A stretch of 64,000 bases of DNA from positions 15,265-79,264 of the IMG/VR virus record IMGVR_UViG_3300027741_000048, one strand, 5' to 3'. Both the position numbers and the translations under genes were made by a program. Below, one piece after another: positions 2,071 through 64,000 of this stretch. Under the pieces are notes generated by a model that searched no databases, was not told the origin of the DNA, and saw only the letters and a program-made list of their open reading frames with translations. Positions within the stretch are counted from its first letter, which is position 1; each line of letters begins with the position of its first letter. The stretch is from a virus.

Positions 2071-5000
2071 TTAGCTATTATATGTAATGTTGGTAGCGGA
2101 AGTAAATAACCGGAAGCCTTTTGTTAGTTCATAACTTAACATATTCTGTATAATACCGTCATCTACACTCCAGTCGGTGTAGGAGCTATTCTGTGGTGTA
2201 AGGGTGGTCATGGGATTATACCAATCAATGATATAATCGTAAAAGGTATTATTATTGTTAGAAATATATTCATAAAATTCATAATATTCACTAATAGCTG
2301 ATCCTGTTACTGTATTGGGTATTACCAGAGGCCATCCCCAGCTAGATGTATATGCGGATAACGGGTAGCCTGTAATAGTATCAGTTATTGTTAGTATGGA
2401 TGATGTTATGGTATTTGTATTTACGAGTGAGTAAATACCTGAGAATCGCTCATAAGCAACGACAGGTTTATCAAAAGAAAAAACACCAGATATAGGATCA
2501 ATTCTAGAGCCTAAATTTATACCGTACGTATCGTTTGATGCTATAGTTCCCTGTTTATTAAAATTGCTTGCGTATTTATTTTGCGTTCCCCATAGATTAC
2601 TCTGCTTAATAGATAAAAGATCAACAAGGCGCTTGATTTGTGGGGGGTAAAGATAATTATAATCTTGATAGTTAATACTCAGTTCATTACAGAAAGAAAT
2701 GAGTGCATCGATGTTGCTCTTATCAATGTCAGATCTATTATTAACGAAGTTGCTTATTTTTTCGTAAACAGTTTTTCCTAATTCGTATGGTTGAGCTGAA
2801 AAACCACCGACAATTGTACCGAGGAACTCATTAAAAAATACTTGTTTATCTAAAAGTGTTTCTTGATATCGTAATGAATTATAAAAACTAGCTGCGTTCC
2901 AATCTTCATTTATTTTAGATACGTTATACTGACCTGTTGATGGAAAAATGTTGAATAATGTTGATGAGCCTGTAATTGTTCTTATTGTGCTAACAGGTGC
3001 AGAGTATTTATTAATCCAATGATACCCGTTCCAATCACCTAGTGCTTGAAATTGCTTTTGACCGCTACTGTAATTAACTGCTGATACGGCAGGTAATATA
3101 ACATCTGGATATGTTAATTTAATACTATAACTGTAACTTAAATTCGTGGTCGGTGTTTTAGCACTAGCGTCAATTAAATAAAGCGCTTTATCTGCGTTGT
3201 TTATTACCCAAATATTATTACCAGTATCGCATGTTATTCCACCGATGTTAGAGTTATAATTATTTTGTATGTTATTACCGGCACCGGCGGTAAAATCTGT
3301 ACGCGTGCGTGTCACACCATCGACGCGTGTTATTGTTTCGCGGTTGTGTGAGATCCATGCGTTTTGATTACCATCAATGGTAATATTATTGATTAATTTA
3401 AAGCCTGAAAGCGGATAACCTGTAACAATATTTCCGTATGTATCAAACTTATAAAGCAAATCGTTAGCTGTGGTAAATGAGTCGCGTACCACATTGAGGT
3501 TCTGAGCTGTCACCCAAACAAACGTATTTCTATCTATACAAATTTCATCAGGTACAATAAAATCGGGAAATTTATATTTGTATAATATATCAGCGTTAAA
3601 GTCAAAATTATCTACACCTCTATATTTGATTAAAAAGTTATTAACAGGATGACTGTACGATATCCAGATATTGTTATCATGATCAGCGTCTATAGAGCTG
3701 GGTAAAATAGTACCGTCGCCGGCAAAACCGCTATAGCTTGAATAATCACTCGACGTGAGCATGGTTTCAGTAAAGTCAGGGCAAGCAACGTTAACTGCGT
3801 ATCCATTTGTTGTGTCAAATTTTAATGCCGAGCCGCTATCGATAAGTGTTACCCATATATTATTCTGCCCGTCGAGTGTAATATAGTTCGGCGTAGCAAA
3901 GAAGCGATTACCCTGATCGTCGAGACCTCTATAATCAATATACCGTATCTGGTGGTTTATTAGTGTTGGTACGCTCGAGAGTGAAAAATAGTAAACCGGC
4001 TCGTTTGTGTCTTGACTATAGTAAAGAGGTTGTAATATACCGTTGTAGTCAATACGAGAAATGCGGTCGTTTATTGGATCACCAATCCAAGTCTGATAAT
4101 CGTCATCGTAACCGGGTCCCTGTGGTGCCATAGCGATAGCATATGTATTACTGTCATTAATATCGATTAACGGTTCGTTATTTGTAAATGTTACAGTTTT
4201 ATTACCGTCTAAGCCGTTGTATGTTTCTTGGCGAAGTATTCTAAAAAGAGAACTATACTGCGGTATTGCTATCCAACCAACAAGTGAATCTTTTTGATAA
4301 AAAGTCGGTTCTACAATAGTTATACCGGCAGTGAGTATGCAGTTTTGTGAAGATTGTGACGCTACAAAATATCCTTTATAAAAGCTACCAATTGATTGTG
4401 GTGCTTCAGGTGTAAAATCTTCGTAAAATGTAACACCCTGTACGGTACTTGTATCACCGCTTTCATTAATTTGTACAACACCGAGTTGAACATTGTAGGA
4501 TGTAAGTGGTGAGGTAGAATTATTTACAACACTTGAGGACGAAAGCGGTGGGTAATTCTTGGTTGTATATCCGCGTTCATCTTTTAACTTTATTAAAAAC
4601 GGTATTTGTGTTTCTTGCCAACTAACGTACGGTATATTAAAATTTGTAGCTGATAATATACCTTCACCGTCGATCCCAGTTGTTGTGATACTTAAACGGT
4701 TAGCAGGGTTAAAGCGTGTCTTAATTCCAGGAAATACTATAGGATCGGTGTTTTGTATACCATACGGTGGGTAATTAACGGTGTCGAATATATTTCGGCT
4801 CTCCGTTAATGCGTCATTAAATTTAGAACTATCAACAGTTGCAAAAATAAAAACTGGGTGATCTTCTGTGGTTAGATTTCCGGGTACATCATCAGTATAG
4901 AGAAACTGGCATGTACCTGTTGTACCTACAAATACACTACCTTGATCGCTTTGATTACAGTATTGTAGCGTATTATCTACAATGCTAACAAAAAGCTGTG

Positions 5001-39694: not shown

Positions 39695-40384
39695 CTAATT
39701 GCTAGCGTATTCACTTAGGAACTTTGTTTGGTTCTCATTAAACGTTTTGTCGTTGAGATCACTCAATCCCGGTGATCCGTGAAACGTAAGAATTGGTATA
39801 ACACCGAGCTTGAGCTTCTTCTTATTAGCATCAATACAACTGGATATGTCGTAGTGGTGGAATGTATAATTTTCATTAAATCTCCAGTTTACTTCACGTA
39901 CTTTTGCGGTATCAACAGACATGAATGCACCGTCTAAGATAGCTACACGCGCAGGCGTCGGACCAAAGCTAGTGATTGATGTTGTATTGTTGTTAGATAC
40001 AAAATGGCCAGCAAACCCTCTTAGGTTACCACCTTGAAACCCTCCGCACATAATATGCCAGAGAGCAGGTGCCTTAATAATAGGATTAATACCACCGGCT
40101 AATCCTAAAATATTATACGTATTATGACCTATCTCAAGCTTTTTTAAAAAACCAGCGTCATCAATCCACATATCATCATGTGTAAAGAGGATAATATCAG
40201 ATACGCTTTTATCTAACACCTTATTATATATCTTACTTAGACTGTCTGTATTCTGCGTTTTAAACGTCAATTTATCCAACACACTAACATGAAATTCGCG
40301 TTCGAGCTTAGCTAAGCTCTGATATAGGTAAGTCTGCTTGTAGTCGGTTTTTTGTGTACAGGAGAAAATTGAGATTGTTTTCAT
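39695..40384 (-). CDS. GT-A fold glycosyltransferase-like protein
   Basis: IILFTHDD, GLAG, VAILDGAFM, FNENY.FHHYD motifs. Confidence 0.7.
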   Translation of the reverse strand: MKTISIFSCTQKTDYKQTYLYQSLAKLEREFHVSVLDKLTFKTQNTDSLSKIYNKVLDKSVSDIILFTHDDMWIDDAGFLKKLEIGHNTYNILGLAGGINPIIKAPALWHIMCGGFQGGNLRGFAGHFVSNNNTTSITSFGPTPARVAILDGAFMSVDTAKVREVNWRFNENYTFHHYDISSCIDANKKKLKLGVIPILTFHGSPGLSDLNDKTFNENQTKFLSEYASN

Positions 40385-41067
40385 AATAAAAAGAACGGTG
40401 AGTTTTTTGTAAAGCCTCCGACAGATGTTATCCCTTCGAGAGTTATTTGATATAAGACGCCTTCTTCCAGGGAAGTAAAATTAGTCTCTGGAAGAGATGA
40501 AAAGGTATTATTAATCAGGTCTGCGTAAATAGTGCTACCAGATCTCGCAATGAAAGTATTATGTGTTACTTTATTATAAATCCATAATCCAAATGTACCT
40601 TCGAGTTTTGAAAGAATTTTACAAATAAGATCGGTTTCGCTTAACCCTGATTCGTCGCTTTCTTGCGCTAACAAGGCAGGTATTACTGACGAATCAACCT
40701 CATTAAATGTATTTTTATCTCGAACTTGGTTTTTTAGTTTAATGTCATTAGTTAATACGCCATTGTGCGCGACAACCCACATATTGCATTCAAATGGGTG
40801 TGACGTTTTTCGATCAAAGGAACGTTTAGAGCTTGTCGGTGCCTGTGTATGTCCTAGATAATAATAAAAATCGGATGGTCGCATTGATACACTACTATTT
40901 TGAATTGACATATTTTTTGACAATTCAACAACGCTTTCTTCTTTAACGATAGCGTCGTATGCATGACTTAAAAATAAACCGCCGTATGCAAATGTACCAC
41001 GTTCTTTATTTTTATTATAAAGTTTGCTGTATTTAGCAAACTCGTTGGATCCAAATATTCCGCAAAT
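40381..41067 (-). CDS. Class II glutamine amidotransferase (Ntn), predicted ATT start
   Basis: Frame is open upstream of the tracked ORF to ATT-TGC-GGA-ATA-TTT-GGA ([M]CGIFG); ERG, LGHTQAPT, HPF, VAHNGVLTN, VDS, LEGTFG motifs; SD AGGAGG 8 nt upstream. Confidence 0.8.
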   Translation of the reverse strand: MCGIFGSNEFAKYSKLYNKNKERGTFAYGGLFLSHAYDAIVKEESVVELSKNMSIQNSSVSMRPSDFYYYLGHTQAPTSSKRSFDRKTSHPFECNMWVVAHNGVLTNDIKLKNQVRDKNTFNEVDSSVIPALLAQESDESGLSETDLICKILSKLEGTFGLWIYNKVTHNTFIARSGSTIYADLINNTFSSLPETNFTSLEEGVLYQITLEGITSVGGFTKNSPFFLL

Positions 41068-41071
41068 AGCG

Positions 41072-41107
41072 TTACCCTCCTCTCCTGTTTGAATAGCTAA
41101 TATTCAT
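41072..41107 (-). other. 11-codon upstream ORF MNISYSNRRGG containing the SD for the amidotransferase
   Basis: ATG 10 nt after TTGATA-N16-TATAAT (41145-41118); stop 4 nt before the ATT. Confidence 0.4.
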
Positions 41108-41110
41108 AGT

Positions 41111-41170
41111 ATGAATTATTATATCTATAAAATAACCAATATCAATACAGGAAAATTTTATATTGGTTAA
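41111..41170 (+). pseudogene. Truncated GIY-YIG homing endonuclease relic
   Basis: MNYYIYKITNINTGKFYIG* = YIY...YIG core then immediate stop. Confidence 0.7.
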
Positions 41171-41258
41171 TATAATAGTCAAAGCTCGGTTGTATTTAGA
41201 TATTTTAAAATTTAATATCGAACTTCTGCATATGGATAAGAATAAATAATTCAAGCAT

Positions 41259-42155
41259 ATGAATCGTGATTCACATTTAATTTTTGAAGCATATACGCAG
41301 CGTTTAACGGAAATGGCTCTTAAGACAGATTATACAAAGGTCCGTGAAGCTATCATTAATGGTCTAAAGGGCAGATCAGGTAATTCTTATCTCTTTAAGA
41401 CAGTTGCAGATAAAACTGGACAGAGTGTAGAAGAAGTTGTTGATGTACTTGTTAAGCCTGTGATCGACGCGTTATTCCCAGGTGGTGTATTCTCATCGAC
41501 AGGTGAGAGAAAGGACCAGGTCAGTAAATTACAAAATTCGATTCATCAAGAGCTTGCAAGACAGTACGGCAGTGCTGTATCAGGTTATACAGCGAGAATT
41601 ATTAAGAATTTTATCGATAATGTTATCGAGACAGTAGATGATGAAGTTGAGCAAGGAGAGCCTGTTTCAGATGCTAAGAATGACGTTGTAGCAGCGATTG
41701 CACAGGTTGCTGATAAATCTGAAGAAGAGGTAAATAGTGGAGCTACGCAGGAGCAGCCATTAGAAGTAGATGCATCTACAGAAGGTAGCGCCGGTGGCAA
41801 TGCACTATTACAGCATGCTGTTGATCAGGTTGGTGATGGTATTAATGAGGATGAATTAATTGATATTCTTAAACAGCATATCGTACAGAAGGATTCTGAT
41901 GTTAGTGAAGCACGTGCCAAAGGCCAAGCAAAAGGTGTTATTAACAAGCTTATTGCATCAAACGTCCTTACAAAAAGAGGTACATATCTTGAACCTGGTG
42001 AAAAGGCTGATGAGTTTGCCGAAAAGGGTGATTTATCTCTTGTCGGTGCTAGTGAAAAAGAATATGCCGCGCGTGAATTCGGTGTTGGTAGTCGACCGAC
42101 ATCAGGTCGCCAAGTCTTCGGCGGCGAAGACAGATTCGGCGGAATGTTCGGTTAA
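41259..42155 (+). CDS. Hypothetical late protein
   Basis: TAAATA at 41243-41248; N-terminus MNRDSHLIFEAY. Confidence 0.65.
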   Translation: MNRDSHLIFEAYTQRLTEMALKTDYTKVREAIINGLKGRSGNSYLFKTVADKTGQSVEEVVDVLVKPVIDALFPGGVFSSTGERKDQVSKLQNSIHQELARQYGSAVSGYTARIIKNFIDNVIETVDDEVEQGEPVSDAKNDVVAAIAQVADKSEEEVNSGATQEQPLEVDASTEGSAGGNALLQHAVDQVGDGINEDELIDILKQHIVQKDSDVSEARAKGQAKGVINKLIASNVLTKRGTYLEPGEKADEFAEKGDLSLVGASEKEYAAREFGVGSRPTSGRQVFGGEDRFGGMFG

Positions 42156-59844: not shown

Positions 59845-60672
59845 ATGAATAATATTAAATGTTTTGAGTGTGGTGAAAATTTTAAATTTTTAAACAATAC
59901 ACATCTTAAAAAACATGGTTTAACTATTCAGGAGTATAAAGATAAATGGAAGGTTGAAGGGAGTTTAGTTAATGATGATTTAAAAAAAGTAAGAGGTGAT
60001 CATACTCGTGGTAAAACGTATGAGCAGATACATGGTATTGATGAAGCACAGAGATTGAAGGAAGTAAGAGTAATACATTCAACAAATCAAATGCGCGATG
60101 TTAATCAACGACTGTTAAGAAAAAGAGTTTGCGGAAAATGGGCTGCTAACGCTAAGGAATATGCTTCACGTATTAGTAAAATGAAAATAGCTTGTCAGAA
60201 TCCAAGTGTATCAAAGCGTCGGCGCGAAACATTACTCTCGCGTTATAGTACAGCTAATACTCTCGGTATACAGCCGCGGTTTTCAAAAATGGCTTATGAA
60301 TATATCAAGAGTTATATTAAACTAAACAATATAAATGAATCGTGTTGTTATTATGCTAGAGGTGGTATCAATAATAGGGAATATGTTTATTTTGACGTGG
60401 AAAAGCAAAAGCATATTATGTTTGATTTTGTTGTTATTAATGCTGAAACAAGAGAGATAGAATTAATTTTAGAATATAATGGACCTTTTCACTGGACCAG
60501 CGACGATATATTAAAAGATCCAAACAGCTTAGCAACTTGGTTTAAAACAAATTCTATGACAAAACTTGAATCATATGATCATGATCAATATAAATTAAAT
60601 ATTGCTAAAAAAATTAGTAAAAATGTTACGGTGTATTGGTTACGCGATAAACGTATCGAACAAATAAAATAA
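59845..60672 (+). CDS. Free-standing putative homing endonuclease (Zn-finger + PD-(D/E)xK/Vsr-like domain)
   Basis: CFEC...HLKKHGLT..EY, GKTYEQIHG, FDFV...LEYNGPFHW; late promoter TAAATA at 59832. Confidence 0.65.
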   Translation: MNNIKCFECGENFKFLNNTHLKKHGLTIQEYKDKWKVEGSLVNDDLKKVRGDHTRGKTYEQIHGIDEAQRLKEVRVIHSTNQMRDVNQRLLRKRVCGKWAANAKEYASRISKMKIACQNPSVSKRRRETLLSRYSTANTLGIQPRFSKMAYEYIKSYIKLNNINESCCYYARGGINNREYVYFDVEKQKHIMFDFVVINAETREIELILEYNGPFHWTSDDILKDPNSLATWFKTNSMTKLESYDHDQYKLNIAKKISKNVTVYWLRDKRIEQIK

Positions 60673-62426: not shown

Positions 62427-63098
62427 ATGAGTTATCAGAGTACTAAACTTATCGAACTTGGATCTTGTGCATTTAGACAATGGAGAGCAGTTCATAGTCA
62501 TTGCCAATATGTGCATGGTTATCAACTTAAAGCGAAGTTTTATTTCGGAGCCTCCGAGCTTGATGAATTGAACTGGGTTGTAGATTTCGCCGGTCTTAAA
62601 GAACTTAAAGTAATTCTTAACAATCAATTTGATCATACACTTTGCGTTGCACAGGACGACCCGCTTCTTCCCTTTTGGCAAGAACTAAACAATCAGCGTG
62701 GCTGTCAACTTCGGGTAATGGAATCTGTCGGTATTGAAAAAACAGCAGAATGGTGCTTTAAAGCAGCTAATGATTTTATAACTACTACAACAGGTGGAAG
62801 ATGCTGGGTTGACTCCGTCGAGGTCTTTGAACATGAAAATAATTCTGCTATCTTCTTTAAACAAGATACAATATCAACACAAAAAGAAGAGACAAAACAG
62901 GCATCTCAAAGTGAAGTGATTGCTAAATCTACAGCAGCTGAAACGCCGTTACCAGTAAAGTCAGAACCAGTACAAAACACACAACCACAACAGCAGTCAC
63001 CCAATCAACCGGTTAACCGACCAGTACCACTTCGTAACCCTGTAACAACAGGTTATTCCGGTTTATTTGATAATATTTCCTGGGGTTCAGGTAGATGA
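62427..63098 (+). CDS. queD: 6-carboxy-5,6,7,8-tetrahydropterin synthase with C-terminal extension
   Basis: AFRQW...SHC..VHGY, WVVDFAGLK, FDHT, VFEHE.NSA. Confidence 0.88.
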   Translation: MSYQSTKLIELGSCAFRQWRAVHSHCQYVHGYQLKAKFYFGASELDELNWVVDFAGLKELKVILNNQFDHTLCVAQDDPLLPFWQELNNQRGCQLRVMESVGIEKTAEWCFKAANDFITTTTGGRCWVDSVEVFEHENNSAIFFKQDTISTQKEETKQASQSEVIAKSTAAETPLPVKSEPVQNTQPQQQSPNQPVNRPVPLRNPVTTGYSGLFDNISWGSGR

Positions 63099-63499
63099 AT
63101 TCTGAACAACTACAACAACTATACGGAGGCGAAATATCCGATTACATTAAGATACAGAGTGTTTCTGATATTAGTAATGCTACACCCATACATGCAGATC
63201 AGCAGCTTGAATCTATTTATAACACGCAAGTTAAACCAAAAGGTGCTATTAATGTAACGAGCACGTTTTTAAATTTTGATCCTAGGAATTTAATAGAAAA
63301 TCGAAGCGAAGATCCTATACAAAAAGCCTTTAAATTAAAACTTAATAAACTAGCAGCTGATATCGGTTTAGAGGGTGATAATTTATATCACACAAACTAT
63401 ACACCATCTTTGAAGAGTCAGTCGGTTAATGACGTCCAGGCTGCCAAGGATCTTGTTGCTGTGGCGTTAGCTGAACTGAAGGAGCTCGGTGCTCTTTAG
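63095..63499 (+). CDS. Hypothetical protein
   Basis: ATGA overlap with queD. Confidence 0.5.
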   Translation: MNSEQLQQLYGGEISDYIKIQSVSDISNATPIHADQQLESIYNTQVKPKGAINVTSTFLNFDPRNLIENRSEDPIQKAFKLKLNKLAADIGLEGDNLYHTNYTPSLKSQSVNDVQAAKDLVAVALAELKELGAL

Positions 63500-64000
63500 T
63501 GTTTGTAACAGGCATGATACCCTTGAAGACATGCGTAACATATCTACATAGTTCCGATCTTACAATATGATCTTCTGTTAATTCAACACAATACACGCCA
63601 TGGTTTCTAGCATCCTCAGTATCAAAAGCTTTATAAACAGTATTAAAACCTGATTTACCGTGTGGAAGATCTGATTGGTCAGGATCACCGCAAATAATCA
63701 TCTTACTAAATTCACCCATACGTGTAAAGAGGGTTTGTAGTTCGCGAATTGTTAAATTTTGACTCTCATCGCAACATACAAATTTTACAGCAAAGTGTAA
63801 GCCACGTGCAAAATTAATCGGACATATAGTAATCCGGTTATCCTTATGTAAGCGGTGAATCTGTGGTTCAATAATAAGCTCAGAGAACTTTTCATTAAAA
63901 GGTGTCATATAGACATTAACCTTCTCATTAATATCCCCGGGAAGATATCCAAGCTTTGAGTCAGAGCTTTCAACAGCAGAGCGAACAAGGACAATATCTG
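63426..64000 (-). CDS. phoH: PhoH-like ATPase (5' part outside window)
   Basis: LVRSAVE...LGYLPGD..EK, ARG, DESQN, TRMG, GDPDQSDL, IVRS. Confidence 0.92.
   Translation of the reverse strand, partial: DIVLVRSAVESSDSKLGYLPGDINEKVNVYMTPFNEKFSELIIEPQIHRLHKDNRITICPINFARGLHFAVKFVCCDESQNLTIRELQTLFTRMGEFSKMIICGDPDQSDLPHGKSGFNTVYKAFDTEDARNHGVYCVELTEDHIVRSELCRYVTHVFKGIMPVTNTKEHRAPSVQLTPQQQDPWQPGRH

Follow-up and report, generated by a model that had tools for sequence, protein, structure and literature searches.

In Escherichia coli, infC has AUU as its sole start codon, preceded by a Shine-Dalgarno (SD) sequence and by an upstream frame that ends a few nucleotides before the AUU. Compared to AUG, an AUU of the infC type lowers output, and it is discriminated against by the initiation factor IF3 (PMC3592434, PMC2268962, PMC5499595). 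In a reporter system, the output from AUU was 6- to 8-fold below that from AUG, and at the thrS-infC junction reinitiation accounts for about as much as de novo initiation does (PMC3592434). Furthermore, E. coli IF3 discriminates against non-canonical starts, leaderless mRNAs and reinitiation that lacks an SD (PMC2268962). Here we describe a phage gene, encoding a stand-alone class II (Ntn) glutamine amidotransferase (hereafter Gat), that resembles infC in its start region: AUU appears to be the sole start, an SD lies before it, and an upstream frame ends a few nucleotides before the AUU, the junctions reading UAA-CGCU-AUU in Gat and UAA-GGU-AUU in infC. In both cases, the AUU is conserved among homologs. 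Unlike infC, however, Gat belongs to a phage, does not encode a translation factor and has no obvious autoregulatory loop. Moreover, the upstream frame is a full gene in the case of infC, whereas in Gat it is an 11-codon upstream ORF (uORF) that is missing from most AUU-bearing relatives. Judged from its sequence, Gat looks like a further case of infC-type AUU initiation, one whose comparative signature is unusually clear.

The gene lies in a stretch of 64,000 nucleotides (the window) taken from a 79-kb IMG/VR record, which represents an uncultured T4-like phage from freshwater. Homologs of the T4-type proteins gp32, UvsX, gp41-type helicase and gp43 polymerase are encoded in the window, the polymerase sharing about 30% identity with its counterparts in Pelagibacter phage HTVC008M and cyanophages. 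A blastn search of isolate phages with the Gat region gave zero matches, and the sole tblastn match in isolate phages was the distant Gat-QueC of an Alteromonas phage. The window harbors no tRNA genes, and a special initiator tRNA was not seen within these 64 kb.

Gat-QueC, as found in phage 9g and archaea, likewise brings together a class II amidotransferase and a QueC-type PP-loop enzyme, with FolE and QueD also phage-encoded, and in phage 9g it leads to deoxyarchaeosine in DNA (PMC6884629). Unlike in Gat-QueC, the two proteins are here specified by separate genes, QueC preceding Gat, and an antisense ORF lies between the two. The window encodes a QueC-like PP-loop enzyme (42892-42152, minus strand; Pfam QueC, E 3e-60), FolE, a GTP cyclohydrolase I (59755-59102, minus strand; Pfam E 5e-50), and a QueD/PTPS homolog (62427-63098, plus strand; E 6e-14). 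The FolE/QueD region is flanked by genes for a ROS/MucR-type zinc-finger segment protein (59845-60672, plus strand) and a PhoH-like protein (63426-63908, minus strand). With QueC, Gat, FolE and QueD, the phage is predicted to encode much of the 7-deazaguanine pathway; a search of the 79-kb record, only 36% complete, gave no match to TGT/DpdA. Most likely, Gat would serve QueC, as the split counterpart of Gat-QueC.

Gat is encoded on the minus strand (41067-40381, 228 codons), and its stop codon (40383-40381) overlaps by 4 nt with the ATG of a family-2 glycosyltransferase (39695-40384, minus strand; from the ORF list, Pfam Glyco_tranf_2_5). The protein scored 37.5 bits against Pfam GATase_6 (PF13522; cut-off, 27) and 27.8 bits against GATase_7 (PF13537; cut-off, 25), and the closest solved structure was the glutaminase domain of GlmS (1xff, E 1.8e-6). 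More than 450 homologs were recovered, mostly of 227 to 228 amino acids and with the N terminus M-C-[GAS]-I-F. The ORF is intact and holds all invariant residues of the family. Among these, N102, G103 and D125 aligned with N98, G99 and D123 of GlmS, which we take to be the oxyanion-hole Asn-Gly pair and the glutamine-binding Asp, respectively. Arg73 of GlmS and PurF binds the glutamine carboxylate; its position is held in Gat by a family-invariant glutamine (Gln75), in a region where the pairwise alignment is only locally reliable.

Ntn amidotransferases need an N-terminal cysteine as the nucleophile. As the original prediction had it, the Cys codon (TGC, 41064-41062) directly follows an ATT (41067-41065), and the sequence confirmed that no ATG, GTG or TTG occurs from the upstream in-frame stop (TGA, 41106-41104) to the first canonical start, TTG 40923, which is codon 49. 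Gat is 76% identical over its full length to the homolog P0002, and residues 1 to 48 are conserved with homologs. Since there is no canonical start before codon 49 and yet residues 1 to 48 are conserved, no alternative start is available. The public gene call for this contig (P0003) begins at an internal ATG and gives a protein of 176 amino acids, as would be the case if the ATT were an assembly error, if the gene were a pseudogene, or if translation occurred only from TTG 40923 or ATG 40911. However, an internal start would remove the Cys1 nucleophile along with 48 conserved residues, and the intact ORF with its invariant residues speaks against a pseudogene. In addition, Logan contigs from two possible source runs covered the stretch with zero differences, and a 151-nt contig of a third and later study matched positions 41016-41166, comprising uORF, SD and ATT, without differences. 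Because contigs of three studies read ATT at 41067-41065 and because ATT was present in 42 distinct related loci, the codon is not a sequencing error. The error or pseudogene reading, which we regard as next to untenable, was therefore excluded.

We then looked at the sequences preceding the ATT. The SD element AGGAGAGGAGGG is located at 41086-41075 (minus strand), and its GGAGG core (41080-41076) lies 8 nt before the ATT. The claim that an SD stands just upstream while most genes of the window have none was borne out: a 5-mer SD at positions -20 to -4 was found in 0 of the 64 window ORFs of at least 100 amino acids, and a 4-mer SD in two. Similarly, a 5-mer SD preceded 0 of the 91 ORFs that flank the ATT+SD genes in related loci (L057-L114). 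Gat was the only site in the window at which an SD and an ATH codon precede a long ORF lacking a canonical start. In two large related genomes, the pattern GGAGG-N6-10-AT occurred at background frequency, as judged by counts only. The upstream regions of the window are A/T-rich, and promoter-like boxes often end 5 to 11 nt short of the ATG, a sign that expression may be near-leaderless throughout the genome. No match to the RegB family, the idea being a RegB-like nuclease that cuts the GGAG motif, was found in the 79-kb record (36% complete).

The SD forms the end of the 11-codon uORF MNISYSNRRGG (41107-41072, minus strand; ATG 41107-41105, TAA 41074-41072), whose frame is -1 with respect to Gat and whose stop is separated from the ATT by 4 nt. 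Upstream lies a predicted sigma-70-like promoter, TTGATA-N16-TATAAT (41145-41118, minus strand; 11 of 12 matches in a promoter scan), with 10 nt between its -10 box and the uORF ATG. This arrangement, too, was as originally described.

To place the locus in a wider context, we collected related loci from IMG/VR and metagenomes and determined which codon precedes the Cys in 69 distinct ones; two hits of the metagenome pattern scan, L027 and L030, were unrelated chance matches. Asking whether homologs have ATG or retain ATT with its SD gave a clear answer: ATT+SD was conserved in 42 of the 69 distinct loci, and the remaining 27 had ATG. In 34 of the loci, the ATT follows a GGAGG-type SD that lies shortly after the -10 box, and in 8 it is preceded by the uORF unit and its SD as in the window. 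The ATG loci comprised 25 without an SD, in which the ATG lies about 9 nt after the -10 box, and 2 with a distant SD-like run about 15 nt from the ATG. ATA, ATC, GTG and TTG were the Gat start in none of the 69 loci. The spacing from GGAGG to ATT was narrow, with 8 nt in 26, 9 nt in 12 and 10 nt in 4 of the 42 ATT loci. All 27 distinct ATG-type loci encode the N terminus M-C-[GAS]-I-F.

Among the ATT+SD loci, 29 of 33 encode the Cys by TGC. TGT prevails in the other two groups (17 of 25 ATG loci, 7 of 8 uORF loci), the window Gat differing from these seven in having TGC. This split may reflect shared ancestry or a +4 context effect on AUU initiation.

The position of the promoter differed between the two groups. 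Given a 16-nt promoter spacer, about 9 nt separate the -10 box from the ATG in ATG loci, compared to about 19 nt from the ATT in SD loci. With so short a distance, transcripts of the ATG class would be near-leaderless. For the SD class, the usual distance between -10 box and transcription start would give a leader of about 12 to 13 nt with the SD roughly at its beginning; should transcription start about 7 nt past the -10 box, mRNAs with a short SD leader would carry the SD right at their 5' end. The likeness to leaderless mRNAs extends to the ATG-type Gat relatives, the window uORF and most window genes, all of which place an ATG about 9 to 10 nt after a -10 box without an SD. The window Gat itself is unlike a leaderless mRNA in that it has an internal AUU and a strong SD.

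We next mapped the start codons onto a maximum-likelihood tree of the Gat proteins. A clade of 27 distinct rows (support, 97) was uniformly ATT+SD, and the spacers between SD and ATT differed between its loci. A uniform clade with differing spacers speaks for purifying selection on the ATT itself, given that a single T-to-G change would yield ATG. On the whole tree, at least 8 changes between ATT and ATG are needed. The close relatives L015, L014 and L010-L013 carry all three leader types, and L031 and L099 also differ from each other. The leaders thus appear to turn over quickly, probably by recombination, and yet only two combinations were seen. The number of truly independent origins of the ATT is uncertain, as leader modules have apparently moved by recombination. 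An independent-pairs test of ATT against SD gave 3 to 4 agreeing pairs and 0 disagreeing ones, with p = 0.125 in what is an underpowered test.

Taken together, the comparison shows AUU to be the apparent start of Gat, coupled to the SD in a pairing that is conserved. We consider it very probable that Gat is translated by SD-driven initiation at AUU, that the methionine is removed to expose Cys1, and that the pairing of AUU with a strong SD has been selected. The SD would direct the 30S subunit to the AUU, where the initiator tRNA would place fMet; deformylase and methionine aminopeptidase would then expose the Cys1 nucleophile. Because an SD with an ATG at good spacing was never found, nor an ATT without an SD, the level of expression seems to be under selection. 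A weak codon behind a strong SD would then act as a selected throttle, with an output comparable to that of a leaderless-like AUG lacking an SD, and would avoid the overshoot that an SD combined with AUG would give. This throttle is probably IF3-sensitive. Extrapolating from the discrimination exerted by E. coli IF3, all Gat leader types would be IF3-sensitive and of low output, so that we expect Gat expression to be low and IF3-responsive. In about 60% of the related phages, the AUU+SD pairing would accordingly represent a conserved way of setting expression.

The contribution of the uORF was less straightforward. The original prediction combined the AUU start with reinitiation into a single device, and the AUU behind a strong SD was found family-wide. 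In the window, ribosomes would load at the uORF AUG, translate 11 codons, terminate at UAA and restart 4 nt downstream with the help of the SD. Termination-reinitiation from a near-5'-terminal uORF could even be the main route to the AUU in the window, a possibility that is compatible with SD-driven initiation and that we hold tentatively, as rather unlikely. In its favor, the uORF ATG lies 10 nt after the -10 box, the ordinary leaderless-like start position of this phage; the frame, length and stop of the uORF are constant in 8 of 8 distinct copies from at least three places on the Gat tree; and the layout of stop, 4 nt and ATT is like the thrS-infC junction. However, the geometry SD-N8-10-ATT is identical in the 34 of 42 ATT loci that have no uORF, and nearly identical copies may mean recent spread rather than selection. 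The uORF therefore appears dispensable for the use of AUU, and reinitiation is at most an add-on. Plausibly, ribosomes ending at the UAA, 4 nt before the AUU, would add reinitiation to de novo initiation in the window leader, which would not be necessary for it.

No significant structure or covariation was found in the leader RNA, which counts against reinitiation as the main route. A search of Rfam, including the preQ1 riboswitches, gave best hits of 15.8 to 20.6 bits (E 1.9 to 7.7), far below the gathering scores, and the single-sequence fold of the leader was not better than shuffles (z-score, -0.89). In the alifold consensus, the sole structure was a small AU hairpin that covers the uORF AUG and varies too little to be counted as evidence; the substitutions of the window fall in its loop, and one A-to-G change leads to a G-U pair.

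The junction between uORF and Gat also brings to mind prfB (RF2), whose register in E. coli consists of an SD-like hexamer, 3 nt, the P-site codon, the stop codon UAA and a C. The window site has the identical register, AGGAGA-GGA-GGG-TAA-C, and as in prfB the downstream gene is in the +1 frame; the Gat frame is moreover open from the start of the uORF on. Ribosomes could thus shift by +1 at GGG-UAA-C and join the uORF to Gat, which we judge very improbable. The product would be MNISYSNRRGG-NAI-Cys..., whose 14-residue propeptide would have to be removed autocatalytically, as is the propeptide of Bacillus subtilis PurF; we give this product equally little credence. Unlike in prfB, most ATT loci lack the 0-frame ORF, nothing upstream of the shift codes for part of the protein, there is no release-factor logic, and the propeptide would need removal. 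Indeed, 34 distinct loci have SD-N8-10-ATT but no uORF, the upstream ATG of L014 is in another frame, and all other family members start with M-C and have no propeptide. Furthermore, a second GGAGG overlaps the proposed P-site codon, and the ATT is retained in every copy of the cassette, although a frameshift product would not need it. More generally, we find it very hard to believe that the uORF unit is more than a carrier of the SD, be it through a prfB-style +1 frameshift or through obligatory delivery of ribosomes from a leaderless start. If this were true, the unit would yield an Ntn amidotransferase from a 5'-terminal AUG in an otherwise leaderless-translating phage, and in the frameshift version removal of the propeptide would free Cys1.

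It had also been speculated that the Asn and Tyr codons of the uORF, which are read by queuosine tRNAs, and its tandem AGG-AGA could let it sense tRNA status. The uORF would then encode a sensor peptide, and ribosomes would stall at these codons (and at Asp codons) depending on tRNA status and thereby gate Gat. Such a role would fit a gene of the 7-deazaguanine pathway that has QueC, FolE and QueD in the same window. The 10 codons behind the uORF AUG include three to four NAY codons, the Asn-to-Asp change found among the copies remains NAY, and AGG is the rarest Arg codon (3%). The codon statistics did not uphold this idea: NAY makes up 19% of all codons, so that at least 4 of 10 is expected with P = 0.11 and at least 3 of 10 with P = 0.30. 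In addition, the codons vary between copies, the window copy replacing one NAY codon; in the uORF frame, the SD sequence dictates AGG, AGA, GGA and GGG; and most ATT loci have no uORF. We consider tRNA sensing extremely improbable.

What, then, is the origin of the uORF leader? The unit extends over about 60 nt from the -10 box to the ATT and is nearly invariant in the 8 copies, while the Gat proteins behind them are only 50 to 60% identical to one another. The seven other distinct copies encode MNNIYSNRRGG or MNDIYSNRRGG. In L011 and L012 (positions 2961-3003), the single A-to-G change from Asn to Asp creates an ATG in the Gat frame, which indicates that the exact sequence of the uORF is not critical. 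This new ATG lies 12 codons upstream of the ATT and, if used, would lead to an N-terminally extended protein. In L023 and L028, the unit is located directly behind the ancestral promoter, and in the window and L010-L013 it is accompanied by a promoter of its own and by the inverted repeat AACCAATAT / ATATTGGTT, after which comes ATTTT (41168-41134, minus strand; read from the sequence). The repeat overlaps the -35 box and represents the left part of the long leader cassette; it is conserved in L010-L013 and diverged in L031.

The 5' half of the unit was never found away from Gat, and neither the window nor the 79-kb record contained further copies of the cassette. Being found only before Gat, in single copy and in at least three places on the tree, the unit appears to be a Gat-specific module passed between lineages, and recent spread rather than constraint may account for its near-identity. 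In one lineage (L072, L091 and L101), the short SD leaders (GGAGGTTAACGAGT-ATT) resemble the cassette sequence GGAGGGTAACGCT-ATT (window 41080-41065), and the 3' part of the unit may derive from a simple SD-ATT leader. The closest described counterparts are the PeSLs, mobile promoter cassettes of T4-like phages. As in these, a compact module of promoter and inverted repeat has apparently passed from phage to phage among relatives, the junctions lying at the -10 box and the start codon. Unlike PeSLs, the Gat cassette is single-copy in the window and the 79-kb record and was found only before Gat.

Traces of the exchange were visible at the window locus. Alignment with short-leader relatives identified TTGAAT (41254-41249, minus strand), next to the start of the divergent gene, as what is left of the -35 box of the ancestral Gat promoter, and the ancestral -10 box has seemingly been displaced by a leader insertion of about 150 nt: a co-occurring relative has 62 nt where the window has 212 nt (41025-41238). 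The divergent gene is a conserved 298-amino-acid ORF of unassigned function (41259-42155, plus strand) that adjoins Gat, with no Pfam or PHROG family and no usable Atlas match. It lies beside Gat in relatives that share the common ancestral promoter region and is absent upstream of the long-cassette loci L010-L013. In related loci, its ATG is 1 to 5 nt from the Gat -35 box. We also noted that the same lake samples hold related phages with the short (62-nt) leader and others with an L028-type arrangement. The leader variants coexist in one community.

These findings have a practical consequence for annotation, as gene callers systematically mis-set the starts of ATT-type Gat genes. About one quarter of the top 120 database homologs were oddly truncated or extended calls without the catalytic Cys, the wrong public calls including P0003, P0036, P0048, P0056, P0075, P0077 and P0116. 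Miscalled ATT-type genes were either cut to an internal Met or extended to a TTG or ATG inside the promoter, and the Cys was lost or buried. Beyond annotation, Gat would provide a natural AUU start outside infC and pcnB that is conserved in multiple lineages and across a phage gene family. The repeated swaps between AUG without an SD and AUU with an SD would amount to a natural experiment on the trade-off between start codon and SD. Overall, this suggests that the dosage of the glutaminase subunit in the 7-deazaguanine pathway of these phages is under tight selection.
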